Part shown: positions 33,954-50,816 of the stretch, one piece after another | How positions within the stretch are numbered: position 1 is the stretch's first letter | Layout: every line of letters starts with the position of its first letter | NCBI GenBank assembly: GCA_023391315.1 | Contig: JAEWBD010000420.1 | Coordinates: 1 to 57,403, forward strand | DNA: 57,403 nucleotides | From: Bacteroidota bacterium | GTDB lineage: Bacteria > Bacteroidota > Bacteroidia > Chitinophagales > Chitinophagaceae | Reading direction: 5' to 3' | Program-made: the position numbers and the translations under genes | Notes under the pieces: generated by a model | The model's database searches: none | What the model was told of the DNA's origin: nothing | The model's input: only the letters and a program-made list of their open reading frames with translations

Positions 33954-35993
33954 TCACTTTGCCTTCTTCACTTCAATTAAAAGATTCTCTTTGAAGTTAA
34001 CTTTTAGCTTAGGATTATCGCCGTTAATTATTCCAAGGTTTTTATTATTTACATAATCATAAACGCTATATTTTTTACCTGCATCCAACCCTCTTAATTC
34101 AACTTCACCATTAAAATCTGGGTTGTAAAAACTGTAATACATGATGTCGCCTTTTTGTATGCAATAAGTTTCAGGATGATCGTAACCAATATCATATAAA
34201 TCGCCGCGAAAGATGCCTTTGCTTAACATCTTTTCATTATAAATATTCAGCCACTTTTCAAACAGCTTTTCCTTTTCCGGTGTTAATAAATTTTCATCTT
34301 TACTTTTTACGCCTGTTGCAGGATAAACAAATTTTGTTCCCGGCACCGCGCCAATACCAATTTGCGAAGCAAAATCTTCTTTGGTATCTGTAAGTTCAAC
34401 ATGATCGCCGAAATAAGCTGTTTGCGGCATCAATGCTTTATATATTTTATTCTTTAACCGCACCTGCCAGCTACTGGTTGGATCGCTTGCTACAAACTGG
34501 TTGGTATAAGGCATGTGATAAAAATTCATTACATCGCCGCACGGGCAAAATTCAATCACGGCATCGGGTTTTATACTTTTTGCCGTTTCATAAATTATTT
34601 TAAACAGCAACGGCAGTTTTTCAAAACTTTGTTCCGGATAATCAACATTATGGTCGCCATAATCAGGTGCGCATGCATTCATATACTGGCCATCTAATTT
34701 CAGTGCATCAAAACCCCAGTCCTGCATAAACATTTTTACAGTGTTCCTCGTTTCTTCAATTACTGCTTTATCAGTGGGCGACATATAATAAGCATCCCAC
34801 CAGGTTATATATTGCGGCGCCCCGTTTTCCTGCTGCAACAAAATATCAGGATGTGCTTTCAACACTTTACTGGCGGGATCTGCAGCCATGGGCGCCCACC
34901 ATAATACAGCTTTCATTCCTTGCGCATGAATACTGTCAACAAAAGCTTTCATCTCATCATCACCACCGGGAAAATGTTCTTTGTTCGTATGCCAGTCACC
35001 TTCCGCCTGCTGAAAGCCATCATCCAGCCCAACCCATTTAAAGCCCAGTTCCTTTACTTTGGGCAGCGTATTTAAAATCTCCTTTAGAGTAAAATCCCTT
35101 TCATAACCCCAAGCGCACCAGATTGGCTCAAATGCAGCGGGTTCGGCAGTTGCAGGCTTTACACCTTTTGTTTGCATGAAGTTTGAAAAGTTGCGCAACG
35201 TGGCAAAACAATCCCTTTCATGCACGCTTACAAAGGTTTCAAAAGTGTGCAGCGTATCATTTGGCTTTAAAATTTCCGGCTCCGGGTACTCATACTGTAA
35301 ACTCATATTCGCAGCATCTGCATATTGATCAAAATCTATTGGCAATGAGACAAGTTTGGCAACAGCTTCTGTATTGCCAACCGCAATGCCTGCATCCTTT
35401 CTCCATAAATCAATAACCGGAATGCCGCCGCCATAATCTGAAGCATTCATACCCATGAAATTTTTTTCATGAAAGCCGCGATTTACTTTTTGAACCCAGT
35501 CACGGCGGTCTGCATGCGAACTGCCCTGGAAGCTCCAGAATGCTGTTGTATCACTTGATGGCAATACATTGTATTCATTATTCACCCATTTTATAACAGG
35601 CAATTCCTTATTACTTTTATTGATGTATTGCACATTGAAATAAGCCGCATCGGGGAAATTATTATATGTTTTTATAGAAAGGATTTTATCAATGTGATTG
35701 ATATTATCCGATCCGAAAAATTTCCATTCAACACCGTTTCCTGCGGCATCATTAATGTTGTTCTTTTCTTTTTTTATAAGATGAAAATTCTTCGCAGTAA
35801 AATATTTCGTTTGAATATATTCTGATGAAGAGAAACCATTGGTTAACGGTTTTGCATTATTGAACGTTGTATTCACCTTTGTCTGCAAATCATCATTCAC
35901 TTCAATTTTTAAACTTTGATTGGTGATAATAGTTTGCGCTGTTGCAATACCAACAACACAACAACTTAGTAATGTTATGAATATTTTCTTCAT
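33954..35993 (-). CDS. Glycoside hydrolase family 36 (alpha-galactosidase/galactosaminidase-like), secreted
   Basis: WCAWGY, GLDDGFQ..GDW, LWWAP, nucleophile motif LKLDG, EFCPCG; signal peptide. Confidence 0.85.
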   Translation of the reverse strand: MKKIFITLLSCCVVGIATAQTIITNQSLKIEVNDDLQTKVNTTFNNAKPLTNGFSSSEYIQTKYFTAKNFHLIKKEKNNINDAAGNGVEWKFFGSDNINHIDKILSIKTYNNFPDAAYFNVQYINKSNKELPVIKWVNNEYNVLPSSDTTAFWSFQGSSHADRRDWVQKVNRGFHEKNFMGMNASDYGGGIPVIDLWRKDAGIAVGNTEAVAKLVSLPIDFDQYADAANMSLQYEYPEPEILKPNDTLHTFETFVSVHERDCFATLRNFSNFMQTKGVKPATAEPAAFEPIWCAWGYERDFTLKEILNTLPKVKELGFKWVGLDDGFQQAEGDWHTNKEHFPGGDDEMKAFVDSIHAQGMKAVLWWAPMAADPASKVLKAHPDILLQQENGAPQYITWWDAYYMSPTDKAVIEETRNTVKMFMQDWGFDALKLDGQYMNACAPDYGDHNVDYPEQSFEKLPLLFKIIYETAKSIKPDAVIEFCPCGDVMNFYHMPYTNQFVASDPTSSWQVRLKNKIYKALMPQTAYFGDHVELTDTKEDFASQIGIGAVPGTKFVYPATGVKSKDENLLTPEKEKLFEKWLNIYNEKMLSKGIFRGDLYDIGYDHPETYCIQKGDIMYYSFYNPDFNGEVELRGLDAGKKYSVYDYVNNKNLGIINGDNPKLKVNFKENLLIEVKKAK

Positions 35994-36057
35994 CTCTAAA
36001 TAATTTCTTTGTGTATTACGACTTCGCCAAACATGAAATGCCGAAGTAACACAAGGT

Positions 36058-37137
36058 TTATTTGTAATTATTTAAAATCTTTTCCGCGTTCTTTCTGTAT
36101 AATTTTTCCAGTACTTCTTTAGGCAAATCCAATCCATATAAAGCCCAATGATAATTGAACATTTCTATTTCATAAAAATGTTCATCGGCGCTTTCCAAAA
36201 TTCTGAACGTGGTTAAATACATGTGCTCTTCAGGGCTATTGTCTGTGCCATACAATAGCCTGTCTTGGTATTTTGTAATAAAAGCCGCAGCATACCTCGG
36301 CACCGGTGCAATCTCCGCATAACGCGCCGCGATATCAGCATATAAATTCGGATACTTATCCAGCATGTTACCCAGCACCTGCAAATTAGAACATGAGTTT
36401 GCCAAATGACAGGCAATAAAAATTGTTGCAGGGTTATCACGCACAGCATTCTCCAAAGACTTTATTAACGCATCATGATCAAGCTTTCCCGGTTTATTCA
36501 TATCCACATGCCATTTGGATGCATTCATCAAACCATCATTCGTGCTGTCGGGCGTTTCATACATCCATTCATCTTCCGCCACATGAATGCTTACAGGCAT
36601 ACGCAGCGCTGCACATTTTTCAAGCAACGGCTTCATTTGCGGATCATCAATATGCAAACCCTTTCCCGGCGTTGGTTTTGAATACAACTCGCCTTCACCT
36701 TTATCACCTAATTCACCCACACCTTTGGCTCCTTTTTTATAACATCTTTCCAATTCTTCCACAGCATGTTTTTGCCAACCCGTCGCGCCATAACCCGTAT
36801 AATCAAGGCCGCACCACAACTCAAACCTGCCGGGGTATTTACTGTATTTCTCTACGGCGCTGTCAAAACCTTTGCCGGTGGCATAAGTAAGCACCATGGT
36901 TTTCTTGATATTCATTTTATCCATCAGCTTAACCCAGTCGTCCACATCTTTTTGTGTTTGGATATAATCATGTGAATGCATATCAATGATTGGAAAAGCA
37001 GCTTTCGTTATGTTGGCCGCAGGCGTTTTATAAATAGATACAGGCCTGTAATTATTCAATAATAATTTATCAGCTTCTGTTTGTGCGAAAGCGTGATGTG
37101 CAATCATAAATGCACAAGCGACGAATATTTTTTTCAT
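36058..37137 (-). CDS. Amidohydrolase-2 family metallohydrolase with signal peptide
   Basis: IDMHSH, GVGEL, SIHVAE, ACHL, LYGTD; N-terminus MKKIFVACAFMIAHHAFAQ. Confidence 0.88.
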   Translation of the reverse strand: MKKIFVACAFMIAHHAFAQTEADKLLLNNYRPVSIYKTPAANITKAAFPIIDMHSHDYIQTQKDVDDWVKLMDKMNIKKTMVLTYATGKGFDSAVEKYSKYPGRFELWCGLDYTGYGATGWQKHAVEELERCYKKGAKGVGELGDKGEGELYSKPTPGKGLHIDDPQMKPLLEKCAALRMPVSIHVAEDEWMYETPDSTNDGLMNASKWHVDMNKPGKLDHDALIKSLENAVRDNPATIFIACHLANSCSNLQVLGNMLDKYPNLYADIAARYAEIAPVPRYAAAFITKYQDRLLYGTDNSPEEHMYLTTFRILESADEHFYEIEMFNYHWALYGLDLPKEVLEKLYRKNAEKILNNYK

Positions 37138-37204
37138 AATACGACCTGTTTGCTTTAAGAGATATAAAAAGCACGAACCTGTTAAGCCCGGCCATTCATC
37201 AATC

Positions 37205-38020
37205 TTACATATTAATTACATCAAGTTTTCTAACAATCAAATCCTTCACTGCATCAATCGCTTTCGGAAACACTTTACGCAAATCAATCTCATCACTTTC
37301 CGCCAATAATGATTGCAGTTTTTTCATAAAAGTGTTTTTTGTTTCTGTTGCAAGATTGATTTTGCTGATGCCGCTGTGAATGGCTTCCTGCAATTGTGCA
37401 TCCGGAATACCGCTGCTGCCATGCAATACAAGTGCACAATTCACTGCAGTCCGTATTTCCTTTAAGCGGTCAATGCGCAGCTTTGGTATTTCTTTATAAA
37501 AGCCATGTGCATTACCAATGGCAATTGCCAACGCATCGATACCTGTTGCTTCAACAAAACGTTTCGCATCATCAGCGCTCGTTGGTTCAAATGTGTGCGA
37601 TTGGTTAAGTTTGGCTATATAACCCAATTCAGCTTCCACATTTGCTTTATAATGTTCAGCAATTTTTACAGTCTCTTTTGTAATGCGCACGTTTTCATCA
37701 AATGGTTTTTCGCTGGCATCAATCATCACGCTGTCAAAGCCGGCATCCAGGCATTTTGTAATAACTTCAATGCTGCTGCCATGATCGAGGTGCACCCACC
37801 CTTCCACATTAAATTCTTTCAGCATAACCTTTGCCATTGCAATAGCCGGTTCGATTCCAAGATATTGCAGTGAGCTCTCACTTAACTGTAAGATCAGGCT
37901 GCTGTTTGTTTGCTTTGCAGCCAGCAATAAACCCTTTAATGTCTCAAAATTGTAGAAGTTCACCGCCAGCAATGCTTTACTTTCTTTGGTGCATGCCGCC
38001 AGCTTTTCTTTCATCGTCAT
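37205..38020 (-). CDS. Class II aldolase (tagatose/fructose-bisphosphate aldolase)
   Basis: HLDHG, SVMIDAS, VEAELG, IGNAHG, VLHGSSG, KINLAT. Confidence 0.92.
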   Translation of the reverse strand: MTMKEKLAACTKESKALLAVNFYNFETLKGLLLAAKQTNSSLILQLSESSLQYLGIEPAIAMAKVMLKEFNVEGWVHLDHGSSIEVITKCLDAGFDSVMIDASEKPFDENVRITKETVKIAEHYKANVEAELGYIAKLNQSHTFEPTSADDAKRFVEATGIDALAIAIGNAHGFYKEIPKLRIDRLKEIRTAVNCALVLHGSSGIPDAQLQEAIHSGISKINLATETKNTFMKKLQSLLAESDEIDLRKVFPKAIDAVKDLIVRKLDVINM

Positions 38021-38970
38021 TGTATGGTATAATTAAATTTTTGGAGTACTGATTTTTTTACAGACTGCAAATCGATGAATGCCGCAGTGCCCCCGTAAGC
38101 TGTTGTATTTAATGCGCCGCAAACAGCACCCATTTCTGTACTTTCCTTTAATGATTTGTCGCGAATGAATTGCCGTATAAACCCGGCATCAAAACTGTCG
38201 CCGGCACCAATGGCATCGGCAAAATCATCATTCATAAATGCAGGCTGTTCTATCACTTCATTTTTATAAAAAGCCGTGGCGCCTTCAATGCTGTTTTTTA
38301 CAACAATAATGTTGGCAAAACTTTGTATTGAAGTAACGGCATCCTGTATATTTTCTTTACTGGTTATATTTTTTAATTCTTCTGTGTTAGGCATGAATAC
38401 ATCAACATTTGGCAGTAAATTTTTCCAGTCACAGTCCCATTTTTCATAAGTATCCCATTGCGGATCGAGAGAAGTAGTTAAGCCAATATCTTTTGCGCGT
38501 TTAAACAATTTTACGAGGCCGGGTTTTAATGCCGGCTGAATAAAAACGGAACTTACATGAAGGTGCCTGGCATTGTGCAGCATAGTATCCGTTATATCCT
38601 TTTCACTCAATGCATTGTTGGCGCCGGGATAAGTAACCATGGCCCGGTTTTGTTCGAAATTAAAAGCGACCGTAACACCCGTTTGCAATGAATTATTCAG
38701 AATAATATTATCTGTGGCAACATTCTTTACTTCAAGGTCTTTAACGATCTTCTTTCCAAAGTCATCGTTGCCTATGCAGCCGCAATAATTAACGGAAACA
38801 CCCAGTGCGCTTAGGTTTGAAGCGAAGATGGCGGAGCTGCTTCCAAGCGTATAAACCATTTTATCGGCAAGAATTTCTTTGCCGGTTTCAGGAAATTGTG
38901 GAAGCCCGCTTAAAATAAGGTCGATGTTTAATTCGCCGGCAACAAGTACATCAAATTTTTTATCCTGCAC
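38017..38970 (-). CDS. PfkB family carbohydrate kinase
   Basis: GNDDFG, FMPNTEE, DAIGAGDSFDAGF; GTG start. Confidence 0.93.
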   Translation of the reverse strand: MQDKKFDVLVAGELNIDLILSGLPQFPETGKEILADKMVYTLGSSSAIFASNLSALGVSVNYCGCIGNDDFGKKIVKDLEVKNVATDNIILNNSLQTGVTVAFNFEQNRAMVTYPGANNALSEKDITDTMLHNARHLHVSSVFIQPALKPGLVKLFKRAKDIGLTTSLDPQWDTYEKWDCDWKNLLPNVDVFMPNTEELKNITSKENIQDAVTSIQSFANIIVVKNSIEGATAFYKNEVIEQPAFMNDDFADAIGAGDSFDAGFIRQFIRDKSLKESTEMGAVCGALNTTAYGGTAAFIDLQSVKKSVLQKFNYTIQ

Positions 38971-39029
38971 GTTTTAACTGAAATTTTAAAAATGAAAATT
39001 CAATTTTATTAACTGCGGTTATTCATAAT

Positions 39030-40205
39030 TTATATAGTCATACTGGCTTCAAAAGGATAAATAATTACGCCCTGCACTACCCTTGATATGGCGCCATTCA
39101 CCGACGGGTTATCAGGCGACAAACCAACAGCGAGACTTTTATAAAAAGCCAGTAACTGCGCCGGCACTATCGCACAAACAGGAAGAAAATCTTCTTCAAT
39201 GCATTCCTGCCCGTCATCAAAATTTATTTGCGCATTTACCTCAACAATATTTTCCTTTTTTTCAGATACAGCCAGTTCATACAAAGCATTATTGCCGGTT
39301 TTCATAGCACCAGCAAGATCGTATTCATATTGCTTTACATAATCATTGCTGCTGAAAAAATATACCACCAATGTTTGTTCATCAATTACAGCCTTGGGCC
39401 CGTGACGCAGGCCGAGATAACTGTCTTCTTTACAGATTATTTTTCCGTCAGTTAATTCCTGCAGCTTAAGCGCCGCTTCAGTTGCTGTGCCAAACAAATT
39501 TCCTGAGCCGAGAAACATGGCACGCCTGAAATCTTTGGCAGCCGTTTTCTGCAACATAACTAATGCACCTGATAATATATGCCCGGCTGCCTTTATTAAT
39601 AATTGTACCTGATCTTTTATAATGGATGGATGATTGATATATGCCATCATCAATCCTGTTAATAACATACCCGAATAGCTGCCGGTCATAGCCAGGCTTT
39701 TATCATTAGCCTTTTCAGGCAATACGAAAACATATTTGGGGTTAGATGTTTCATATTGCGCCAGCGAACCGTTTTCATCGCAGGTAATAATAAGATGAAA
39801 ACATTTTTTTGAAAATGCATCAGCCAGTTTAAGTGCAGCGTTGCTTTCAGGACTGTTGCCACTCCTGGCAAACGATATAATCAATGATGTTTGTTCTGTA
39901 TTAAAATAATCCTGCGGATGGGAAACAATGTTGGTGGTAGCAATGGCCCTGCTTTGAATTTTTGTATTCCTGAAAAAAGGGCCTTCAAGTGAAAGGCCGA
40001 TAAACGCGCTTGTGCCTGCACCTGTAAAAATAATATTATCCACTTCTTTATAAGCACGGGAAAGAAATGCGTGAACATCATCCCTGTACTCAAAAAATAA
40101 ATGTTCGATAGCATTCCATAAATCAGGCTGGCCGGCAATTTCTGCAGCCGTTAAATATGCGCCTTTTCCTTTTAAGTAACTTTCATCCAGACTAAGCAAT
40201 TGCAT
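39030..40205 (-). CDS. agaS: AgaS-like SIS-domain galactosamine-6-phosphate deaminase/isomerase
   Basis: TAAEIAGQP, TGAGTSAF, SFARSGNSPES, AMTGSY, LRHGPKA, NGAISRVVQGV; ATG 40205 preferred. Confidence 0.88.
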   Translation of the reverse strand: MQLLSLDESYLKGKGAYLTAAEIAGQPDLWNAIEHLFFEYRDDVHAFLSRAYKEVDNIIFTGAGTSAFIGLSLEGPFFRNTKIQSRAIATTNIVSHPQDYFNTEQTSLIISFARSGNSPESNAALKLADAFSKKCFHLIITCDENGSLAQYETSNPKYVFVLPEKANDKSLAMTGSYSGMLLTGLMMAYINHPSIIKDQVQLLIKAAGHILSGALVMLQKTAAKDFRRAMFLGSGNLFGTATEAALKLQELTDGKIICKEDSYLGLRHGPKAVIDEQTLVVYFFSSNDYVKQYEYDLAGAMKTGNNALYELAVSEKKENIVEVNAQINFDDGQECIEEDFLPVCAIVPAQLLAFYKSLAVGLSPDNPSVNGAISRVVQGVIIYPFEASMTI

Positions 40206-40222
40206 GAAGTAAGGTTTAAAAA

Positions 40223-40281
40223 CAAAAGTAATGATTATAAATTTATCTTTCAAAATCTTTCTATTTTCTTCATAATCTTTC
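40223..40281. promoter_or_regulatory. agaS -7 box and AgaR-type operator (CTTTC at 10-bp period)
   Basis: TACTTTTG (minus, 40223-40230); ATCTTTC at 40245, 40255, 40275 and degenerate TTTCTTC at 40265. Confidence 0.72.
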
Positions 40282-40356
40282 TATTTAAATAATAATATCA
40301 AACTTAAGATTGTTTTTCACCTATTATTCTGATATATTAGCTAAAATTTTACATCC

Positions 40357-41142
40357 ATGGCTGAAAGAAAAGAAAGATTTACAGTATCGAGACGAAAGAA
40401 AATACTGGAACATATAAAGGAAAGCGGCGAAGTGATGGTAACACAACTGAGCCGGGAATTTAATGTGAGTGAAGTAACCATTCGCAACGATCTTGAACAC
40501 CTGGAAAGAAAGAACCTGCTTGTGCGTGCAAGGGGCGGCGCCATTCATACCGAAAACCATGTGGGGATAGACCAGCGCATTACAGAAAAACATAAAATTC
40601 ATGCGGCAGAAAAAGCAGCTATTGGCAAAATGGCTTCTTCGTTAATTAATGATGGTGAAACCATAATAATTGACAGCGGCACCACTACGGCAGAAATTGT
40701 AAAACACCTGGATGGGATAAAACATTTGAATGTTATTACCAATGCATTGAATATTGCCAATTTACTGGCGGCGCACCCGGCTGTGAATGTAATAATCCCG
40801 GGTGGCTATTTAAGGCAGAATGCCATGAGCCTGGTAGGGCCGTTGGCAGAAAAAAACCTGCGCAATTTTTTTGTTGATAAAGTTTTCTTAAGCACCGATG
40901 GCTTTGATACCAAACAGGGCATTTTTACGCCTAACATTGATGAAGCACATTTAAACGGGATTATGATTGAGATTGCCAAAGAAGTTATCCTCGTAACCGA
41001 CAGCAGTAAGTTTAAAAGAAAAAGCCTGGCTTTTATTTGCGGGCTTGATAAGATCAAGAAAGTGGTTACCGATAATGGTATTGCCATTGATGACAAAAAA
41101 CGTTTGGAGGAAGCAGGTATTGAAGTACTGGTTGCAGGATAA
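40357..41142 (+). CDS. agaR: DeoR-family repressor AgaR
   Basis: VSEVTIRNDL, DSGTTT, VITNALNIA, DSSKF; divergent from agaS. Confidence 0.88.
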   Translation: MAERKERFTVSRRKKILEHIKESGEVMVTQLSREFNVSEVTIRNDLEHLERKNLLVRARGGAIHTENHVGIDQRITEKHKIHAAEKAAIGKMASSLINDGETIIIDSGTTTAEIVKHLDGIKHLNVITNALNIANLLAAHPAVNVIIPGGYLRQNAMSLVGPLAEKNLRNFFVDKVFLSTDGFDTKQGIFTPNIDEAHLNGIMIEIAKEVILVTDSSKFKRKSLAFICGLDKIKKVVTDNGIAIDDKKRLEEAGIEVLVAG

Positions 41143-41173
41143 GAATTAACTACAGGTATAAGCTATTGATTGC

Positions 41174-42316
41174 TTATTCAGTTTGTAATCCTTTAACCAA
41201 ATGCCTTAGTTCACCTTCAACAAATTGATTTGGCTTCCATTGTTTGTAAATATTATCTAAAAGAAATGTATCAAAGGCATTTAATCCTAGTGCCATCGCC
41301 CCTCCTATTCCAGGATTGATAGCTTCTAGTATAGCTGCAGCGCCCGTAAACAAATAAAATCTTATTGCCTTAAAATCTAATCGTTCTAATATATTTTTCT
41401 CTGCAATCTTCCTCTGATATTCTCGCATCAAGTTAGCATCATTGGGTAATTCTCGAATCCAATCCTTATATTTTCTTGCATTTCTTAAAATAGGTAAAAT
41501 AGCCCTAATTAATATTTGTTTATTGTTTATCGCTTCCCTAAGTGCCCTTGAATTATCATATACGTAATGATTAAAAACTTCTATCTCACTATTACTCTTA
41601 CTACTTTTTTCAAGTAACGAGTTCGCCTTGAGTCTTATGATTGAAGAGTTATATTCAGGCAAAGAGATTTCAGATGAAAAATCTGACATAACTTGTAGAT
41701 CTTCAACACAATTTATCATAGCTAAAACAGGAGTGTCGCTTGTACTATAATCTTTATTGAAAGGAATGTTTGTATTTATTGTGAAATGATAGTCATCTTT
41801 GAATTCAAGATTATAATATTGATTTGAAGAATCAATATTTTTTTCTAATGGAAATCTTTTAGTTGTTTCTAACAAAACCTTGTTTTTGAAATTTTCATCT
41901 TTTATTTGTTCTGTTAATGCCTTATTGAGTGTTTTTGGTAATTGGTATATTTTTATAAGACGGCTGATCTTTTTGGCAAATTTTTTACTTTTAAATTCGT
42001 CCTTAGAATATTGGAAACTCTGTTCGAAAAGTTCTTTTTCTAGATCGACATCTTTGATTCCAAACGAGTCGAGCGAAAGTATTCCTCCTTGATTTATTAT
42101 TCCAACATGCGAATTATTAAAATAGACTTCTAAATCGGGCGACTTTAATAATTCTTCTAAAACATTTACATCGGCTAATTTGAATAATGATTCTAATTCT
42201 CCCCTTCCTACATGAACAACAGTTTTATCATAATAAAGCATACTTTCAATCATCTGGCCATAATCTAAATGGAATTCTCTTGCACCATTTGGCCTTATAA
42301 CTATGGTTTCGAACAT
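41174..42316 (-). CDS. AT-rich hypothetical protein inserted in the PUL
   Basis: 380-aa ORF, no motif recognised; composition visibly differs from the flanks. Confidence 0.75.
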   Translation of the reverse strand: MFETIVIRPNGAREFHLDYGQMIESMLYYDKTVVHVGRGELESLFKLADVNVLEELLKSPDLEVYFNNSHVGIINQGGILSLDSFGIKDVDLEKELFEQSFQYSKDEFKSKKFAKKISRLIKIYQLPKTLNKALTEQIKDENFKNKVLLETTKRFPLEKNIDSSNQYYNLEFKDDYHFTINTNIPFNKDYSTSDTPVLAMINCVEDLQVMSDFSSEISLPEYNSSIIRLKANSLLEKSSKSNSEIEVFNHYVYDNSRALREAINNKQILIRAILPILRNARKYKDWIRELPNDANLMREYQRKIAEKNILERLDFKAIRFYLFTGAAAILEAINPGIGGAMALGLNAFDTFLLDNIYKQWKPNQFVEGELRHLVKGLQTE

Positions 42317-42388: not shown

Positions 42389-43255
42389 TTATTCGCTCAG
42401 CAACACAATAGCCACTGCAGCCAATATTAACCCGATTAATAAAACTGTTCCGGGGAAAACGGCGTAAATAATTAAAGAAATAATGATCGTTATTACAGGC
42501 GACAACCCCGTAAGCGGCACCACGATGATCGCTTTTCCATAGCGCAGCGCATATACTAAAGTAAGCGCCCCGATAGCATTTAATATTTGAATTATAAATG
42601 CGAGGTAAGGCCCTTTAAACCCCCAGTTGATGGGTTGCGAAAAATCGGTCATCCATATGGCAAAAGGCGATAGTAACAAAGCGCCGATAGCCATGTACAT
42701 AAATATACTTTCGGCTTTCATAGTATTATTGCTAAACTTCATTACATATGCCTGCAATCCCCACATAATAAAAACAATTACTGAAAGCCATAGCCAGCTA
42801 TTACCCGAAGTTTCGCTGCCTGTTAATTTCGGGTTGGCCAGGAAAACCGCCGCAATTAATGCAAGCGATATGCCTATCCAGTGTTTTTTATTGGTATGCT
42901 CTTTTAAGAAGGCAACAGATAAAATAATTGTCAGCACCGGGAACAATGATATTAGTGGAAATACTATGTAAGCAGGGCCTTCGCGCAGCGCTTCAAATAA
43001 AATTAATTGCCCACCGGCGCCAAGCAAACCTACTATTAACCCTAAAAAAACAGAACGCTTATCCGTTTCGGGCTTCCATTTTATAATGTTTAATGCCACC
43101 AATGCACAAGGCACCATCGTCAGGCTCCATACCACATAACCTAATGTTGCAGGAAAACCCGCTTTTTCGGGTATCTCAATAAAAGCGCCCCATACACCCC
43201 AGAATACCGTAGTGATTATCGCATAAAACAGCCAGAGTTTAGACGACTTTATCAT
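42389..43255 (-). CDS. DMT/EamA family transporter
   Basis: About 10 TM helices in two repeats; FWGVWG, GPAYIVFPL, GKAIIVVPL. Confidence 0.9.
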   Translation of the reverse strand: MIKSSKLWLFYAIITTVFWGVWGAFIEIPEKAGFPATLGYVVWSLTMVPCALVALNIIKWKPETDKRSVFLGLIVGLLGAGGQLILFEALREGPAYIVFPLISLFPVLTIILSVAFLKEHTNKKHWIGISLALIAAVFLANPKLTGSETSGNSWLWLSVIVFIMWGLQAYVMKFSNNTMKAESIFMYMAIGALLLSPFAIWMTDFSQPINWGFKGPYLAFIIQILNAIGALTLVYALRYGKAIIVVPLTGLSPVITIIISLIIYAVFPGTVLLIGLILAAVAIVLLSE

Positions 43256-43328: not shown

Positions 43329-43394
43329 CTTTCGTTATCTTTGGTTTTGTTTTAAATCTTTCGAATAATTTAAATACGGAAAGGTAAACATTTC
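43329..43394. promoter_or_regulatory. Second AgaR-type operator between the EamA gene and susC
   Basis: CTTTC 43329, CTTTG 43339, CTTTC 43358, inverted GAAAG 43379, ATTTC 43390. Confidence 0.6.
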
Positions 43395-43603: not shown

Positions 43604-46597
43604 ATGAAAAAAATATTGTTGTTGCCATTAGTATTTACTGCCCTGTTTGCATCTGCCCAAACAAGGCCGCTGGAAGGTAAAGTTGTTTCGGCAACTGATC
43701 AGCATGCGGTAAGCAAAGCGTCCATCACTATTAAAAACGGTAAATCATTCATTGCTGATGACAGCGGCCGTTTCAGGATTGAAGTGCCTTCCGGCGCATT
43801 TTCATTAACTGTCAGTTCTATTGGCTTTGCGTCGCAGGATGTGGCTGTAAATACAGCAGATAATAATATTACCATACAGCTTATTGAAACAGATAAGAAT
43901 TTAAATGAAGTGGTTGTTGTTGGCTACAGTGATAAAAAGAAAGGCGAGTTAACCAGTTCCGTTGCAGTTGTAGATGCCGGCAAATTAAAAGATGTAACCA
44001 CCAATGATGTGGGCAGCATGCTGCAGGGAAAAGTAGCAGGCCTGCAGGTAGTGAACAGTTCAGGCGTGCCTGGCGCCAATGCAGAAATACGGCTGCGTGG
44101 CGTTTCGTCTATCAATGCATCGCAATCGCCTTTGTATGTGGTGGATGGAATAATCGGCGGTAACTTCGATCCCAATGATGTGGAAAGTATCACTGTTTTA
44201 AAAGATGCCGCAGCAACCGCCATGTATGGCTCGCAGGCCAATGCGGGCGTAATAGTGGTTACCACCAAAAGGGCCAAAACAAACAAAACGGCTTTTGAAT
44301 TTAAAGCCACAACAGGTTTTCGCACGCCGGATTTTGGCAAGCTTGATATGATGAATGGCGAACAGTTATACAACTATCAAAAAGAATTCTACCGCGACTA
44401 TATTCCAACTGATACGGGTAACTCCTATAAAATCGACCTGTTGAAATTTTATGCGGAAAGACCGCGTGAATTACAAGACCAAGATCATAACTGGATGACG
44501 ACAATTTTTAATCCTGCATTCATGCAGAATTATTACTTCTCCATTTCAGGCAGAACAGACAAGAACGATTATTACCTCGGCGCATCTTATTATAACGAAG
44601 ACGGCACCTTTAAGAACACAAAATTCCAGCGCGTTAATTTAAGGGCGTCTTCAACGTTGCATTTCAACCCAAAAATATCTTTAACCAATACCATTAATAT
44701 AAGCGGTATTACAGGCACAAGCTATGATTACAATGATATTTATTATGCATTCCTAAACCTGCCCTGGGATAACCCTTACGACAGCGCAGGCAAGCCTGTT
44801 TATGTAGATGGCAACTCTTCTTTCAAATGGTGGAGCAGGGATAAAGTAAACCCCTTACACACCATCGATCATTCAGCTCATCCATACAAAGGTTTTGATG
44901 TGAACTACGATCTTAACTTTAATTATCAAATAACCAACTGGCTGGCCTTTTCAAGCACCAACCGCATTGGCGCAAGCTACAGCAAGAGCACTAATTATTA
45001 TTCAGGCGATGTTGCCGGGCAATATCATGGAACGGGTTATCTGGATGAAAGCAGCATATTAAGTTACAGCGGCATTTCAAATGATCTTTTAAAATTCAAT
45101 TTTAAGTTTGGCAATCACCAGTTAAGCGGCCTTGCAGGCGTTGCATTTGAAGGCGGCAAAACAGAAACAATAGGAGCTTCCGGCCGAGGCCTGCCTTTTA
45201 ATTTAAGGGTATTAAATGTTGTATCAAGCAATTTAAGCGTGAATGGATATTATGACCAGTCGGCATTAATATCTTATATCTCGCAGGTTAACTACAGTTA
45301 TAAAAACAAATATTTCTTAACCGGCTCTTACCGCGTGGATGGCTCAACAGCTTTTCAAAAAAATAACCGTTACGGTTCATTCCCTGCCATATCTGCCGGA
45401 TGGTTAATAAGCAATGAAGATTTTTTGAAAGATAATCATGTAATTGATCTCTTAAAAATACGCGGCGGTTATGGCGTAACAGGCACACAGGATATTGGCG
45501 CTTCCCGTTACCTGGGGTTGTATTCATTAACCAGCCAATACAACAATGAATCTGCAGCAACGCCATCACAACTGCCAAGCCCTAACTTAACATGGGAAAG
45601 TAAATATCAAACAAACATTGGCGTTGATATAGATTTCTTCAAACGTATTTCTTTATCTGTTGATGTATATAAAAATCAAACAAAGAATTTGTTATTGCAG
45701 GTGTCGCAGCCATTGTCTGTCGGTTTTGAAACAAGATGGGAAAATTCAGGAGAGATAGAAAATAAGGGTTTGGAAATTGCTTTATCAACTATTAATATCC
45801 GGAACAAAAATTTTTCATGGACAACGGATTTCAACATCAGCTTTAATACAAATACGCTGCAAAAATTACCGGCAAATTTTGTAAAAACAGGTTCATGGGC
45901 CATCTCTCAAACCTATCGCAACGGCGGTAATCTTTACGAGTTCTATATGCCCGTATGGAAAGGCGTTGACCCACAAACAGGCGCACCTTTATGGGAAAAA
46001 ATTACCAAAGATGCTGATGGCAATGTCACGGCAAAAGAAACCACGTCAAGCTATGCCGAAGCCACTTTGCAGGAGGTGGGTTCTGCCTTGCCGAAATACC
46101 AGGGCGGCTTTACCAATACATTCACGTATAAAAATTTCTCTTTGAGCGCTAACCTGTATTTCCTGTATGGCAACAAAGTTTACAGTAACGATCTGCGCTT
46201 TGTAATGAACGATGGCAACGAGCCTTACTATAATCAAATTGTACTGCCATCAGGTTACAGCATCTGGACGAAGCCCGGCGACATCGCCACCAATCCTAGC
46301 CCGCAAAACGCGGCTAATTCAACAGAAACATCAACAAGATATTTGCAGAACGGCAGCTATCTTTCCATACGCAATATTTCGCTTGGTTATAACCTGCCGC
46401 AAAGCTTGGCCACAAGGCTTGGCCTGCAGAACATCGCGGTTACAGTTACGGCAGATAATGTTTATACGTTCACCAAATTCCTAGGCCAGGATCCGCAAAC
46501 AACTATCCAGTCAGATATTTATACAACGCCCGGCGTAAGCGATTTCAAATATCCCAACAATCACCAGTATTTATTAAACATCAACATAAAATTTTAA
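43604..46597 (+). CDS. susC: SusC/RagA family TonB-dependent transporter
   Basis: LNEVVVVGY, PLYVVDG, VLKDAAATAMYGSQANAGVIVVTTK, YRVDGS, NLTWES, C-terminal Phe. Confidence 0.96.
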   Translation: MKKILLLPLVFTALFASAQTRPLEGKVVSATDQHAVSKASITIKNGKSFIADDSGRFRIEVPSGAFSLTVSSIGFASQDVAVNTADNNITIQLIETDKNLNEVVVVGYSDKKKGELTSSVAVVDAGKLKDVTTNDVGSMLQGKVAGLQVVNSSGVPGANAEIRLRGVSSINASQSPLYVVDGIIGGNFDPNDVESITVLKDAAATAMYGSQANAGVIVVTTKRAKTNKTAFEFKATTGFRTPDFGKLDMMNGEQLYNYQKEFYRDYIPTDTGNSYKIDLLKFYAERPRELQDQDHNWMTTIFNPAFMQNYYFSISGRTDKNDYYLGASYYNEDGTFKNTKFQRVNLRASSTLHFNPKISLTNTINISGITGTSYDYNDIYYAFLNLPWDNPYDSAGKPVYVDGNSSFKWWSRDKVNPLHTIDHSAHPYKGFDVNYDLNFNYQITNWLAFSSTNRIGASYSKSTNYYSGDVAGQYHGTGYLDESSILSYSGISNDLLKFNFKFGNHQLSGLAGVAFEGGKTETIGASGRGLPFNLRVLNVVSSNLSVNGYYDQSALISYISQVNYSYKNKYFLTGSYRVDGSTAFQKNNRYGSFPAISAGWLISNEDFLKDNHVIDLLKIRGGYGVTGTQDIGASRYLGLYSLTSQYNNESAATPSQLPSPNLTWESKYQTNIGVDIDFFKRISLSVDVYKNQTKNLLLQVSQPLSVGFETRWENSGEIENKGLEIALSTINIRNKNFSWTTDFNISFNTNTLQKLPANFVKTGSWAISQTYRNGGNLYEFYMPVWKGVDPQTGAPLWEKITKDADGNVTAKETTSSYAEATLQEVGSALPKYQGGFTNTFTYKNFSLSANLYFLYGNKVYSNDLRFVMNDGNEPYYNQIVLPSGYSIWTKPGDIATNPSPQNAANSTETSTRYLQNGSYLSIRNISLGYNLPQSLATRLGLQNIAVTVTADNVYTFTKFLGQDPQTTIQSDIYTTPGVSDFKYPNNHQYLLNINIKF

Positions 46598-46600
46598 GCC

Positions 46601-48277
46601 ATGAAGAATAAGAAAACCATAAAGAGAAATTTTATGTTACCGGCAGGTGATACAATGATCAAGCACGGTTGTGTCACTCCCTTGTACCGTATATTTTCAT
46701 GGCAGCAACGCGGCCAGGCACCTAAATCATCATCCTGTTTATTTAATATAACAATGCCAGTTTCGCTCCGCATCTATACAACAGCAATATTGTTATGCAT
46801 GATCACCTTCAGCAGTTGTATAAAGGATGTTTCGCCCAGCGATTCCATTACAACAGAAACGCTTACTTCAACAACGGAAGGTTTAACCAACGCGGTTAAT
46901 GGCGCTTACGCTTTGTTTAAAGATCATGTAATGTTTAACGGCACGGCGGATGACAACAATATGTATTTGCGCCAGTTTTTCCAGTTATCAGATTTTGCCA
47001 GCGATGATATTGTTTGTTCACAGGTAACAGAAGATCCTTTGTTTTACAGTTTCAGTTTAGACCACTCTCCCACACAAACCAATACACGTTATTTCTGGTA
47101 CATATCTTATAAGATCATCAGCGATTGCAATACCGTAATTGAGGCAGTAGAAAAAGAACCAACAGATGATCCTGTAAGAAAACAATTATTGGGCGAATGT
47201 TACTTCCTGAGAGCCTTTGCGCATTTCAATCTTGTAAGATTATTTGCAAGGCCATACACGCAGGATAAATCAGCACCAGGCATTATTTTAAGAACATCTA
47301 CCAGCGATCCTTCAGAAAAAGCAAGATCAACCGTTGAAGAAGTGTATGCACAGGTTGTTGCAGATGCATTAAAGGCAGCAGACTTAATGGATGCATCGCG
47401 TGGTGTGCAGTATGCCAGCAAAGAAGCTGCAGAGGCATTGCTGTCAAGGGTGTATTTATACATGGATGATAATGCCAACGCAGCAGCTTATGCTACTAAA
47501 GTAATCAGCTCCGGAAGGTTTGCATTAACAACGGCAAACACATTTCCGCAAATGTTTGCAAATGCAGTGGGCGCTTCTGAAACCATTTTCTGTATTGCCT
47601 TTACAGATAAAGAAGATTATGGCAAATTCGGTTCTATCGCTTCCATGATATTCAGCGATGGCAACAGTGGCTGGGGTGAAGAATTTGCCACTTCATCATT
47701 AAGGAATTTAATGGGCACACATCCCGAAGATGTGCGCTGGGATTATATTGTACCGCTTGAAGATGGCAACGGCGGTATTGCAAAAAAGAATGGTATTGAA
47801 ACTTATTATATCAGCAAATTTTCTTTCCAGGATGGCAGTCCCACTTTAAGCTCACCCATTATGTTCAGGCTTGCAGAAATGTATTTAAACCGTGCAGAGG
47901 CCGAAGCAAAAACCGGCAACACAAAAGCTGCATTGGATGATGTGGATGCTATAAGAAAGAACCGCGGCCTGCAAAACAGTTTATACAATGGCAAAGTGCC
48001 TAATGGCATGACTTTACTGGACGTGGTATTGAATGAAAGGCGCATAGAGCTTGCCTTTGAAGGTCAGCGCACCTTTGATGTATATCGCAATAATAAAACA
48101 ATGAACAGAACCTATTGGGGCTATCATTTGCCGGGTTTAAAGGAAACGGATATTAACCTGTCAAAAACGCCAACGGGCTATAGCAATATGATTGTAGAGC
48201 CGACAGATAACAGGATTATCTATTACATTCCAATTGATGAAATACAGAGTAATTCATTATGCACACAAAATCCGTAA
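46601..48277 (+). CDS. susD: SusD/RagB family lipoprotein
   Basis: FSSC lipobox, GECYFLRAFAHFNLVR, FRLAEMYLNRAEA, ERRIELAFEG; start uncertain (46601 or 46754). Confidence 0.94.
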   Translation: MKNKKTIKRNFMLPAGDTMIKHGCVTPLYRIFSWQQRGQAPKSSSCLFNITMPVSLRIYTTAILLCMITFSSCIKDVSPSDSITTETLTSTTEGLTNAVNGAYALFKDHVMFNGTADDNNMYLRQFFQLSDFASDDIVCSQVTEDPLFYSFSLDHSPTQTNTRYFWYISYKIISDCNTVIEAVEKEPTDDPVRKQLLGECYFLRAFAHFNLVRLFARPYTQDKSAPGIILRTSTSDPSEKARSTVEEVYAQVVADALKAADLMDASRGVQYASKEAAEALLSRVYLYMDDNANAAAYATKVISSGRFALTTANTFPQMFANAVGASETIFCIAFTDKEDYGKFGSIASMIFSDGNSGWGEEFATSSLRNLMGTHPEDVRWDYIVPLEDGNGGIAKKNGIETYYISKFSFQDGSPTLSSPIMFRLAEMYLNRAEAEAKTGNTKAALDDVDAIRKNRGLQNSLYNGKVPNGMTLLDVVLNERRIELAFEGQRTFDVYRNNKTMNRTYWGYHLPGLKETDINLSKTPTGYSNMIVEPTDNRIIYYIPIDEIQSNSLCTQNP

Positions 48278-48280
48278 CAC

Positions 48281-48316
48281 GGTCAGACGCCTTTAGGGCG
48301 TCAGACCGATAGCAGG
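48281..48316 (+). repeat. REP-like palindrome, copy 2
   Basis: GGTCAGACGCC-tttag-GGCGTCAGACC-gatagcagg. Confidence 0.7.
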
Positions 48317-48362
48317 TACATTAAAAAAATATCAGTAAAGCAGGTTTATAAAATCATTACAA

Positions 48363-49232
48363 ATGAAAAAAACTAATCTCACCATTTTAATCGCTGCATT
48401 AATTGCAGCTGTTAATTTTTCTTCCTGCAAAAAAGATTCAGATAATCCGCAGCCATTCGTGTTTTATAGTTTAAGCATTGATGGCGCAACCGTTTCCTTT
48501 ACCAACAAATCTGAAGACGCCGTGAGTTATAAATGGGATTTTGGCGATGGCACCACATCAACAGATGAAAGCCCCACGCACACTTATCCCGGCAAAGGAA
48601 AATATGTACCAACATTATATGCCACAACATCTGCAGGCGTTACCGGCGAAGCATCAACGGTAATACATATAGCAAAAGTTTCAGGCATTAAACTCGACGA
48701 TAATTCATTGTCAGACTGGGATACGGTTGCAACCAATGTTATAACAGCGGGCGCACATTCCGGCAACTTTATTAAAGCCAAGTTTGATTATGATGCCAAC
48801 TATGTATATGTTTATTTTGAACAGAATACAAAAAAATCTGACGGCAATATTTACGACCTGTATATTGATGCTGACAACAATATCAATACAGGTTTGCTAA
48901 CCGGTGAAATTCCAAATGGCGGTTACGAAGTTTTACTTGAAGGAACCATATTCGATGACTGGCTTGACCCTTATTATTTCATTGGAACAGACCAGCAGAA
49001 CTTTGGCAACTATACTTATCAAAACCTCAACGAATTTTATAAAGTTGGGGCAGTGGTTCAAAGTGGTGGCGTACAAAAATTTGAATTCGGACTTAGCAGG
49101 AGTAAGATAAAAGGCTTAACCGGTAAAGGATTGAAGATTGGTGTGCAGGTTGCGGCAAACGACTGGAGCGCTATCATTGGTTATTCGCCCGATCAAAGCA
49201 CGGATGCGTTTTATCTTGACATGAGTGAATAG
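48363..49232 (+). CDS. PKD-domain surface lipoprotein (candidate surface glycan-binding protein)
   Basis: FSSC lipobox, YKWDFGDG..PTHTY PKD motif, position downstream of susD. Confidence 0.85.
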   Translation: MKKTNLTILIAALIAAVNFSSCKKDSDNPQPFVFYSLSIDGATVSFTNKSEDAVSYKWDFGDGTTSTDESPTHTYPGKGKYVPTLYATTSAGVTGEASTVIHIAKVSGIKLDDNSLSDWDTVATNVITAGAHSGNFIKAKFDYDANYVYVYFEQNTKKSDGNIYDLYIDADNNINTGLLTGEIPNGGYEVLLEGTIFDDWLDPYYFIGTDQQNFGNYTYQNLNEFYKVGAVVQSGGVQKFEFGLSRSKIKGLTGKGLKIGVQVAANDWSAIIGYSPDQSTDAFYLDMSE

Positions 49233-49265
49233 CTTCTAAAGATATAACTGCATTATTCTAATAAC

Positions 49266-50816
49266 ATGTTCCAATCATTCATGAAAAAAAATCTTTTGCT
49301 AATTGCCGGCATTATATCAATTATTGATTTTGTTCAATGCAATAAAATTGGGAACCCTGTAACCTATATGCCGCCTGCAACAGATACTGTTTATTATGAT
49401 GAAAGCAGCGATGATTTCGCCAATCCTGAACGAGGCTTTTATCGTGCCACAGAAACTTATGTATCAAACTACGAACCACTCGATGTGGAGACGATGAAAA
49501 CCTGGCGCAGCCTGCAACAAGCTGATGATGGCAATTATAAAGTATATAGCACGCTGGTGTTCAGGAATATAATTTTAGATGGATTTACTAATAAGAATTT
49601 AACGCAGGATGTTCTGAACAATATCGGAAACGATTTTAAGGCAGCCCGTGAAGCAGGTCTTAAGCTCATCGTTCGTTTCTGTTATACTATTACAGCTAAC
49701 AGCGGCGCCTGCCCGGAAGGTTTTATATGCCCCCAATATGGTGACGCACCAAAAAATATTGTACTGGCGCAGATAGCGCAGTTAAAACCCATACTGCAGG
49801 ATAATGCTGATGTTATTGCCTGCATGCAGATGGGGTTCATAGGTACCTGGGGTGAAAATTACTACAGCGATTATTTTGGCGACCCCTCATCAAATGGAAA
49901 AGGAAAATTATTGGATAAGAACTGGAGCGATAAGAATGAAATATTAAAAGCCTTACTATGTGCATTGCCGCAAAGCCGCATGATACAGGTGCGCACGCCG
50001 CAAATGAAACAACGGTATGTGTATGGCGTTAACGCTCCAACATCATCCGCAGCTTTAACCGATGCACAGGCTTTCGATGAAAGTGATGCTGCCCGCATCG
50101 GGTTTCATAATGATTGCTTTCTTTCATCGCCCAACGATTACGGCACTTATGATGATTATGGCAATTCATCATCGCCGCGTGCAGACGCCTATTCCATATT
50201 GCATTTGTATTCGGCGGCAGATGGGAAATTCACGGTTGTTGGCGGCGAAACCTGCGATGATACTTACAGCCCCGAAAACAATTGTGAAAACAGCGGCAAG
50301 GCACAAACAGAAATGGCGAATATGCATTACAGTTTTTTAAACTGCGCTTATAATAATGATGTCAACAACGACTGGCAAACAGAAGGTTGCATGGATGCCA
50401 TTAAAAAGAATTTAGGTTACAGGTTTGTTTTAAGAGATGGTGTTTTTCCAAAAGAGCCTGTTAAAGCAGGCATGCAGTTGCCATTTACGCTGAACATTAA
50501 TAATGTGGGTTATGCTTCGCCATATAATGCGAGGCCTGTGCAACTCATCATGCGTAATCAATCAACCAGGCAGGAATTTGTTTATGTGATTGATACTGAT
50601 ATCAGAAAATGGTATAGTGGCTTAACTTCACTTACTGTAAAAATTGTAACACAAAATAATATGCCGGCCGGCATTTATGATTTGTTTTTAAATATGCCCG
50701 ATGCATACGCCTCACTTTCGTCAAACCCTGCTTATTCCATTCGCCTGGCAAATACAAATGTTTGGGAAGAAACAACAGGTTACAACAGTTTGAACAAATC
50801 TGTAACAATACAATAG
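49266..50816 (+). CDS. DUF4874/DUF4832-type lipoprotein, putative glycoside hydrolase
   Basis: NPERGFY, GFIGTWGE, RIGFHNDCFL, GGETC, LGYRF motifs recalled for this family. Confidence 0.72.
   Translation: MFQSFMKKNLLLIAGIISIIDFVQCNKIGNPVTYMPPATDTVYYDESSDDFANPERGFYRATETYVSNYEPLDVETMKTWRSLQQADDGNYKVYSTLVFRNIILDGFTNKNLTQDVLNNIGNDFKAAREAGLKLIVRFCYTITANSGACPEGFICPQYGDAPKNIVLAQIAQLKPILQDNADVIACMQMGFIGTWGENYYSDYFGDPSSNGKGKLLDKNWSDKNEILKALLCALPQSRMIQVRTPQMKQRYVYGVNAPTSSAALTDAQAFDESDAARIGFHNDCFLSSPNDYGTYDDYGNSSSPRADAYSILHLYSAADGKFTVVGGETCDDTYSPENNCENSGKAQTEMANMHYSFLNCAYNNDVNNDWQTEGCMDAIKKNLGYRFVLRDGVFPKEPVKAGMQLPFTLNINNVGYASPYNARPVQLIMRNQSTRQEFVYVIDTDIRKWYSGLTSLTVKIVTQNNMPAGIYDLFLNMPDAYASLSSNPAYSIRLANTNVWEETTGYNSLNKSVTIQ

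Follow-up and report, generated by a model that had tools for sequence, protein, structure and literature searches.

The removal of N-acetylgalactosamine (GalNAc) from blood-group A antigen by Flavonifractor plautii is said to proceed in two steps, through the enzymes FpGalNAcDeAc and FpGalNase, which Rahfeld et al. reportedly described in 2019. The locus presented here resembles that system in that a glycoside hydrolase family 36 (GH36) enzyme of the FpGalNase type is encoded beside an exported metal hydrolase, an arrangement to which the same deacetylate-then-cleave logic would fit. It lies in a 57,403-nucleotide stretch of DNA (contig JAEWBD010000420.1, analysed over its full length and called the window below) from a Parafilimonas (Chitinophagaceae), a soil Bacteroidota for which P. 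terrae DSM 28286 is the closest named genome; the assembly is 4.5 Mb in size and 94.9% complete. It differs from the F. plautii system in that the partner of the GH36 enzyme is a TIM barrel of the amidohydrolase superfamily, neither protein carries the carbohydrate-binding modules of the F. plautii enzymes, and the pair sits within a SusC/SusD (SusCD) locus together with a galactosamine (GalN) catabolic operon. As the host here is a soil bacterium, a blood-group antigen is an unlikely substrate.

The catabolic genes resemble the aga/gam genes of Escherichia coli and the AgaK/AgaA/AgaS route of Shewanella in including AgaR, an AgaS-family protein and an aldolase of the tagatose-bisphosphate type (PMC12118421 and PMC5583593, both in excerpt). 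In contrast to those pathways, the locus has no phosphotransferase system (PTS), AgaA, AgaK or GatZ/KbaZ, its uptake proteins are of the SusCD and EamA types, and its sugar kinase is a ribokinase-like PfkB protein. With the Pel and galactosaminogalactan hydrolases PelA (GH166), Sph3 (GH135), Ega3 (GH114) and SIR_1591 it shares a secreted barrel glycosidase, which has the DUF4832 domain and the beta-amylase-like fold of SIR_1591 (PMC12345266, in excerpt). Those enzymes belong to the biosynthetic operons of producers and either trim or disperse the producer's own matrix, whereas the gene here stands in a consumer's uptake and catabolism locus. The Bacteroides thetaiotaomicron locus BT4240-50, for mucin O-glycans and GalNAc, is likewise a Bacteroidota polysaccharide utilisation locus (PUL) that ends in GalNAc-type catabolism and has periplasmic exo-glycosidases, but it relies on GH109 and GH31 GalNAc-ases and a GalNAc 1-kinase, and the terms AgaS and tagatose occur 0 times each in the passages searched of its description (PMC11992087). 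By analogy, the Parafilimonas locus would combine, within a Bacteroidota PUL, the two-enzyme system of F. plautii with a GalN pathway of the E. coli type.

On balance, and with modest confidence, we favor the interpretation that this is an AgaR-controlled PUL for an alpha-linked GalN/GalNAc glycan of a Pel-like or galactosaminogalactan-like kind. At the cell surface, a lipoprotein with a PKD domain would bind the polymer and the DUF4874/DUF4832 barrel would cut it, as the fold and one characterized relative suggest, and SusC and SusD, from their family assignment, would import the resulting oligosaccharides. In the periplasm, the FpGalNase-like GH36 enzyme would remove terminal alpha-GalN, as expected from homology, and the Amidohydro_2 hydrolase would turn terminal or free GalNAc into GalN, with everything ending as GalN; this is the weakest step of the route and is proposed from gene context. 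Context also suggests that EamA could carry GalN across the inner membrane. In the cytoplasm, GalN would be phosphorylated, AgaS would convert GalN-6-phosphate to tagatose-6-phosphate and ammonia, a kinase would produce tagatose-1,6-bisphosphate, and the class II aldolase would split it; of the two kinase steps, PfkB would perform one (that on tagatose-6-phosphate is the likelier) and PfkA or a ROK-family kinase the other. A more far-reaching proposal, which we offer tentatively and would sooner expect to fail than to hold, is that the amidohydrolase is the first member of a new family of periplasmic enzymes that de-N-acetylate GalNAc and, together with GH36 and a DUF4832 glycanase, makes up the first described soil-Bacteroidota locus for Pel or galactosaminogalactan, feeding free GalN into an AgaS/tagatose pathway without PTS or AgaA. 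A literature search, with subscription journals mostly outside its reach, found no publication on a PUL for either polymer and none linking DUF4832, GH36 and PF04909.

The GH36 enzyme, whose N-terminus is a hydrophobic signal ending in AQ, points to GalN as the sugar that is released. Among solved structures it came closest to 8x1b and 9awt/9ayu, entries of F. plautii FpGalNase deposited under the title 'A type blood alpha-D-galactosamine galactosaminidase'; these chains matched residues 133-675 with E-values of 3.4e-69 (237 bits), 5.6e-68 and up to 1.1e-67, and the next-best structure family reached 3e-14 (55 bits), a gap of 55 orders of magnitude. The analogy with the F. plautii GH36 enzyme drawn in an earlier note on this DNA is thereby strengthened at the sequence level, with FpGalNase rather than ordinary alpha-galactosidases nearest among solved structures. 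In FpGalNase, W317, D346, D347, W387, K461 and D463 are common to alpha-galactosidases and Y464, C513 and D532 are specific; the D463A, C513A and D532A variants are almost inactive, and Y464A has lowered but not abolished activity (PMC11762096). When these positions were mapped by eye on the structure-search alignment (chain offset 43), eight of the nine were identical in the window protein (W295, D324, D325, W365, K432, D434, C485 and D504), and 34-35 of 35 Bacteroidota homologues share each of the eight. Among these conserved residues are the nucleophile D434 (D463 in FpGalNase), the acid/base D504 (D532) and C485 (C513). We infer that the enzyme belongs to the FpGalNase branch, has an intact catalytic apparatus and is a candidate exo-alpha-galactosaminidase, with a predicted preference for GalN over galactose or GalNAc. 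This branch is rare, as it was detected in 9 of 301 Bacteroidota genomes, comprising the window's genome and a sample of 300 others in which related genomes are not independent.

The genes surrounding this enzyme form a conserved and apparently co-regulated unit. The minus-strand run reads, from 5' to 3', agaS, PfkB, aldolase, amidohydrolase and GH36, and since the intergenic gaps are 59, -4, 67 and 64 bases, it is very probably one operon. The agaR gene is divergent from this run, and the susC, susD, PKD and DUF4874+DUF4832 genes are divergent from EamA, so that adjacent SusC and SusD genes, glycoside hydrolases and a regulator, the hallmarks of a PUL, are all in place. P. terrae DSM 28286 has the complete cluster in synteny, with 88-98% protein identity. 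A synteny survey, which the earlier note had called for, found the five-gene core colinear in nine of ten related genomes; the tenth has GH36 and the amidohydrolase only, near a contig end. The gene arrangement is not due to chance.

Both divergent promoter regions carry a shared motif. The ATCTTTC-type heptamer occurs 19 times in the window compared to 7.8 +/- 2.6 times in shuffled sequence, and the stricter pattern CTTTC-N3-ATCTTT[CG] has four matches in the 4.5-Mb genome (1.9 expected from base composition), of which two fall within the cluster's two divergent promoter regions and two inside open reading frames (ORFs), with no other intergenic match. CTTTC repeats were present in all 15 agaS-agaR intergenic regions examined, with CTTTC-N5-CTTTC spacing in closer relatives, and in the EamA-susC regions of relatives a TTTCTTTCGTTATCTTTG block is nearly unchanged in most. 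CTTTC-type promoter repeats are a further likeness to E. coli, where we take them to be the AgaR operator. The window's AgaR passed the cut-off of NF040755 (284.7 versus 260 bits) and has both the DeoR helix-turn-helix and DeoRC Pfam domains. Because the repeats occur in both promoter regions, match no other intergenic site and are kept in relatives, AgaR probably controls both halves of the cluster, and its apparent regulon would be the cluster alone. A scan for sigma-70 promoters and terminators found sites no more numerous than in shuffled sequence.

The nature of the polymer is suggested by the DUF4874+DUF4832 protein, which is encoded by the only DUF4832 gene in the window's genome. Its AlphaFold2 model (pLDDT 90) consists of a (beta/alpha)8 barrel followed by a C-terminal beta-sandwich, with the beta-amylases 7upv and 1b90 as best fold matches (Z 13.3) and GH5 enzymes at Z 12-13; a sequence search of solved structures was unproductive and found no close relative. 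Two glutamates, E197 after strand 4 and E328 at the end of strand 7, did not vary across 27 diverse sequences. Clan GH-A enzymes and beta-amylases have their catalytic residues at these two places, a role that E197 and E328 may also have in the modeled fold. The DUF4832 protein SIR_1591 of the Streptococcus intermedius pel operon has a barrel like those of beta-amylases and beta-galactosidases and, as reported in the accessible part of the same source, disperses Pel-dependent aggregates as well as PelA does (PMC12345266). DUF4832 ORFs are also contiguous with pel operons in streptococci and clostridia, and Pel is a partly de-N-acetylated alpha-1,4-GalNAc polymer (PMC7112168, in excerpt). By analogy to SIR_1591, to which the window protein was likened through the shared domain and the published fold description, we infer a glycanase for alpha-1,4-GalN/GalNAc polymers. 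The neighboring PKD protein has the lipobox NFSSC followed by KKDSDN, with acidic residues, and is a predicted surface glycan-binding lipoprotein. DUF4832 is a large family with 3779 cluster representatives; in the 300-genome sample it was found in 16 genomes and in five of the eight that have GH36 (G024, G068, G114, G209 and G250), always within 15 kb of the GH36 gene.

In distant Bacteroidota families, GH36, the amidohydrolase and DUF4832 recur together in different arrangements. The order in G209 is SusC-SusD-amidohydrolase-GH36-amine oxidase-cytochrome c-unknown-DUF4832-GH31, and in G114 it is AgaR / amidohydrolase-GH36-SusC-SusD-unknown-DUF4832-GH31-EamA. GH36 and DUF4832 are adjacent in G250 and about 14 kb apart in G068; the neighbors in these two genomes (loci L125 and L130) are a TonB-dependent receptor, a PorV-like protein, a Big_5/beta-propeller protein and two family-less proteins of 509-518 amino acids, with type IX secretion tails on two neighboring proteins in L125 (G068), and neither SusD nor the amidohydrolase was found in the fetched stretch of either locus. 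The GH31 enzyme of G114 (L129) matched PDB entry 8j53, a 'GH31 alpha-galactosidase', with an E-value of 3.6e-208. The GH31 enzymes 8j50-8j53 are reportedly specific for alpha-1,4-galactobiose, and if so, the G209 and G114 loci would match the sugar set of galactosaminogalactan with an alpha-1,4-galactosidase, a galactosaminidase-type GH36 and DUF4832. No such GH31 was found in the window's genome, which agrees with a substrate that contains no galactose, Pel or polygalactosamine for instance; alternatively, the range of the GH36 enzyme may be wider. The suggestion of Pel or galactosaminogalactan as substrate, made in the earlier note, thus gains support from a published DUF4832 Pel hydrolase (PMC12345266, in excerpt) and from GH31 alpha-galactosidase genes in two distant loci. 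EamA homologues with 49% and 67% identity adjoin GH36 homologues in two distant genomes, a recurrence that agrees with the proposed import of GalN by EamA, a role suggested by gene context. In a distant version of the module, a flavin amine oxidase and a cytochrome c are encoded between GH36 and DUF4832 (L127:7624-9831, minus strand), a hint that the amino sugar may be oxidised in that version. An FpGalNAcDeAc-like beta-propeller was considered as a replacement for the amidohydrolase in GH36 loci that have none and was rejected, as the propeller there matches YncE and surface-layer proteins; the 509-amino-acid protein beside it returned no matches.

The exported amidohydrolase was examined by sequence, fold and gene linkage. 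It matched PF04909 as its only Pfam family, no NCBIfam family and neither Amidohydro_1 nor TIGR00221, so it is not of the NagA/AgaA type, as the word 'non-orthologous' in the earlier note had implied. A signal peptide (hydrophobic, ending in AQ) is present on this protein and on nearly all homologues. Against solved chains, a single-sequence search gave nothing at E<=0.1 and a profile search gave one chance match at E<=1; the F. plautii deacetylase was not among the matches, and its inclusion among the searched chains is presumed from the report that its structure is resolved (PMC11762096). A Protein Atlas search returned 'amidohydrolase family' clusters only. The AlphaFold2 model (pLDDT 78.9) shows the (beta/alpha)8 barrel that defines the amidohydrolase superfamily, in which strand 1 carries HxH, strands 5 and 6 a histidine each and strand 8 an aspartate, with E142 on strand 4 in addition; the ligands H54, H56, E142, H185, H244 and D299 were invariant in 23 sequences. 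An HxH/E/H/H/D ligand set is typical of hydrolytic members of the superfamily. The closest folds were 3irs (Z 22.2, root-mean-square deviation 2.8, 239 residues aligned) and 3cjp (Z 21.8), both uncharacterized. As modeled, the fold is that of a metal-dependent hydrolase-type barrel and is silent on the substrate.

The amidohydrolase is highly conserved, with 6063 database relatives at E<=1e-5, the best 120 of which are 64-93% identical. Neighborhoods were scanned in one genome per species (465 relatives), and within 10 kb of the best 80 we found GH36 in 26 loci, aldolase in 25, AgaS in 24, PfkB in 24, AgaR in 20, SusC in 18 and EamA in 16; DUF4832 was present in 4 of the 80, and its distance in the window, 13 kb, exceeds the fetched flank. 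A quick tree of 81 sequences split into two clades with 100% support in the Shimodaira-Hasegawa-like approximate likelihood ratio test (SH-aLRT). The window-side clade has 38 rows, 27 with GH36 (a contig end truncates at least one of the remaining 11), and the second clade has 43 rows, none with GH36. Because GH36 linkage is limited to one of these two clades, the GH36-linked amidohydrolases are, judged from sequence, a distinct orthologous group. In the 300-genome sample, with a threshold of E<=1e-60 for the amidohydrolase, GH36 occurred in eight genomes, the amidohydrolase in nine and both in five (G024, G114, G162, G209 and G252), compared to about 0.2 expected from chance overlap, and in four of these five, from three families, the two genes are adjacent. 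The loci survey, the tree and the genome sample therefore bear out the pairing of an exported amidohydrolase with GH36 in the earlier note, as the two are tightly linked across the phylum. From its gene context, we regard it as a candidate GalNAc de-N-acetylase, at a confidence somewhat short of even. The genome encodes a second PF04909 protein (G000:C283:18043-19071, minus strand) that is 32% identical to the one in the cluster.

The observations in this and the following paragraph weigh against our interpretation, beginning with the deacetylation step. It is conceivable, though in our judgment rather unlikely, that the locus does serve GalN/GalNAc and the amidohydrolase is another kind of periplasmic hydrolase, acting on a sugar lactone, on some other N-acyl or ester bond, or in a step linked to N-acetyl transfer, with GalNAc handled outside the cluster through GH109 release, a ROK-type kinase and NagA. 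The fold matches that follow the two uncharacterized structures all lie at Z 17-19 and spread across the superfamily, including decarboxylases, lactonases, TatD nucleases, phosphotriesterase-like proteins, the carbohydrate deacetylase PpOngB and the N-acetyltaurine hydrolase PTER. PF04909 also has many members other than amide hydrolases, and the lactonases, decarboxylases and hydratases of that family are seen among the matches. In 11 of 53 sister-clade loci, a 417-amino-acid HGSNAT-like membrane protein is encoded just downstream of the amidohydrolase, and in 6 of those 11 a GH109-like GFO_IDH_MocA gene is added. Pfam is silent on this membrane protein; in the Atlas it falls in clusters partly annotated HGSNAT_cat (16-30% of members, a lead only), and along its full length it shares 24% identity (E 5e-19) with a protein from L025 that exceeds the HGSNAT_cat cut-off. 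The latter, an HGSNAT_cat/Acyl_transf_3 membrane protein of one Parafilimonas (L025:17038-18198, plus strand), is divergent from agaS, in the place that agaR has in the window. HGSNAT-type enzymes N-acetylate terminal amino sugars, the reverse of deacetylation. A deacetylase in the periplasm would fit poorly with a neighboring N-acetyltransferase unless the two target different molecules, such as an oligomer end and the free sugar, and these neighbors keep a non-deacetylase role alive; in the sister clade, the HGSNAT and GH109-like set might act on alpha-GalN ends as an 'acetylate then cleave' counterpart. The amine oxidase and cytochrome c of the distant module would suit a non-deacetylase role as well. 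The genome also holds six nagA-model matches, one of them over the curated cut-off (G000:C324:5762-6844), together with a GH109 gene and five ROK-family matches, all elsewhere, which leave a conventional GalNAc route open. None of the nagA-model matches is on the window's contig and no mannose-type PTS EIIC was found in the 94.9% complete genome, so the earlier note was right that NagA/AgaA and PTS are missing from the window, and its description of the system as lacking agaA holds for the window and not for the genome. Speaking for deacetylation nonetheless, the cluster in the window has no lactone-making oxidoreductase, the strict operator motif at no other intergenic region leaves no outside gene visibly co-regulated, the nagA gene over the cut-off stands among housekeeping genes (a KdsB-like gene, a CN-hydrolase and fabH), and adjacency of GH36 and the amidohydrolase in three families is explained most simply by two steps on one substrate.

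Further reservations concern the catabolic enzymes and the glycanase. The AgaS-family protein, whose true start is probably a Met 16 codons downstream, scored 348.6 bits on TIGR02815, below the cut-off of 529.2, with the next family at 76. It is likely a GalN-6-phosphate isomerase/deaminase, since a dedicated kinase and aldolase are sensible only for a tagatose-6-phosphate product and not for fructose-6-phosphate (PMC12118421, in excerpt). The GatY, KbaY and FBA equivalog models all scored the aldolase below cut-off, and we take it to be a probable tagatose-1,6-bisphosphate aldolase. PfkB is not LacC-like, as it scored 44.4 bits against a cut-off of 216.4 on TIGR03168 (LacC/1-phosphofructokinase), and its nearest NCBIfam models and PDB structures are ribokinase/fructokinase-like; this score makes it less likely that PfkB is a LacC, not that PfkB phosphorylates tagatose-6-phosphate. 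The PfkB gene overlaps the aldolase gene by 4 nt, and in one related locus (L062) both are gone and AgaS, the amidohydrolase and GH36 remain. Because of this overlap and joint loss, we lean, on thin grounds, toward a tagatose-6-phosphate kinase over a GalN kinase. No GalN kinase was identified and no GatZ/KbaZ was found in the genome, which has one PfkA besides the five ROK-family matches. PfkA of E. coli phosphorylates tagatose-6-phosphate. Given these PfkA and ROK-family genes, an enzyme encoded elsewhere can supply the phosphorylation that PfkB does not, be it of GalN or of tagatose-6-phosphate; the gap noticed earlier, of two kinase steps and one kinase, is real within the cluster and not fatal to the pathway. 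As for the glycanase, the sole DUF4832 enzyme assayed to date was judged by aggregate dispersal and not by analysis of the bonds cut, a rumen cellulosome too contains a DUF4874-DUF4832 protein (PMC7480376, in excerpt), and the lipobox of the window protein, FVQC, is atypical.

It is improbable that the GH36 enzyme is an ordinary alpha-galactosidase or alpha-N-acetylgalactosaminidase and the locus serves another alpha-Gal/GalNAc glycan, with GalNAc passing through a kinase and NagA into the AgaS pathway. GH36 is chiefly an alpha-galactosidase family, with many such enzymes among the structure matches, and the match to FpGalNase is distant. The one specificity-patch residue that differs, Y464 of FpGalNase, corresponds to G435 in the register of the KxD motif, with glycine in 34 of 35 homologues, which also counts against our interpretation; a HMMER alignment pairs Y464 instead with Y437, at a position variable among homologues. 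NagA can moreover stand in for AgaA in E. coli (PMC12118421, in excerpt). Against this stand the gap of 55 orders of magnitude that sets FpGalNase apart as nearest solved relative, the needlessness of AgaS for free galactose, the absence of any GalNAc kinase or deacetylase of known kinds from the cluster and its apparent regulon, and the separate GH31 alpha-galactosidase of the distant versions, which suggests another task for GH36. Very improbable is a chance neighborhood of an aga catabolic operon and a SusCD locus for some other polysaccharide: the five-gene core does occur without an adjoining SusC/SusD, AgaR or EamA counterpart in three Parafilimonas genomes, and in G021 the adjoining fetched stretch has only a SusC-like gene of 27% identity, but one rare operator motif marks both promoter regions and no other intergenic site genome-wide, DUF4832 keeps close to GH36 in five of eight other GH36 genomes, and SusCD lies within the module in distant loci.

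Pel and galactosaminogalactan hold bacterial and fungal biofilms together. To our knowledge, the enzymes known to cut them all come from producers, and if the interpretation of a GalN/GalNAc utilisation locus is true, a consumer locus would show how soil recycles these cationic polymers. Biofilm dispersal could then draw on a DUF4832 glycanase and an exo-galactosaminidase, a new deacetylase partner could broaden the enzyme set for blood-group A to O conversion, and the large uncharacterized PF04909 branch of 6063 proteins would receive a function, as DUF4832 would a physiological setting.

Genes were called from ORFs together with Pfam and NCBIfam profile searches of the window proteins, and every gene listed in the earlier note was recovered at its place (Table 1).

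Table 1. Features of the putative GalN/GalNAc utilisation locus (window positions) and loci of relatives with an HGSNAT-like gene
Feature	Position	Strand	Evidence or remark
GH36, signal peptide	33954-35993	-	Pfam Melibiase 58.5 bits
Amidohydro_2 (PF04909) metal hydrolase, signal peptide	36058-37137	-	Pfam 66 bits
Class II ketose-bisphosphate aldolase	37205-38020	-	PF01116 281 bits; TIGR00167 231.3 vs cut-off 215.6
PfkB-family sugar kinase	38017-38970	-	PF00294 145.5 bits
AgaS-family SIS protein	39030-40253	-	TIGR02815 agaS_fam 348.6 bits; two SIS stretches
Putative AgaR operator, three ATCTTTC direct repeats	40245-40281	+	agaS-agaR intergenic
AgaR, DeoR-type repressor	40357-41142	+	NF040755 284.7 bits vs cut-off 260
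380-aa (amino acid) ORF without family	41174-42316	-	Between agaR and EamA
EamA/DMT transporter, 10 transmembrane segments	42389-43255	-	PF00892 106 bits
Second putative AgaR operator, CTTTC-GTT-ATCTTTG ... ATCTTTC	43329-43362	+	EamA-susC intergenic
SusC-type TonB-dependent transporter	43604-46597	+	Plug and CarboxypepD_reg domains
SusD-family protein, start codon uncertain	46601-48277	+	SusD-like_3 and SusD_RagB
PKD-domain lipoprotein	48363-49232	+	PKD_4 52.8 bits
DUF4874+DUF4832 protein	49266-50816	+	PF16173 144 bits, PF16116 197 bits
HGSNAT-like loci of relatives	L066:5836-9916; also L068, L073, L074, L076, L079, L081, L082, L086, L105, L111

The ORF between agaR and EamA, which is missing from the gene list of the earlier note, matched no Pfam or NCBIfam family, its best E-value in PADLOC was merely 0.03, and no counterpart was found in 15 related loci or in the 80 amidohydrolase-relative loci, P. 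terrae included. A search for flanking repeats around it found none. Because it is absent from related loci and its stretch has a GC content of 34.5%, it is probably a strain-specific, recent-looking insertion outside the system. Downstream of the DUF4832 gene, a D-serine-dehydratase-like pyridoxal-phosphate enzyme and an M19 dipeptidase (51072-53408, plus strand) are kept in P. terrae and not in more distant versions of the cluster, and are probably a separate unit. A GH36 protein in L132, 31% identical and in an unrelated gene context, was set aside. Just past the GH36 gene, a formate/nitrite transporter and an alginate-export-type outer-membrane protein (31586-33870, plus strand) were otherwise seen beside the cluster in P. 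terrae only.

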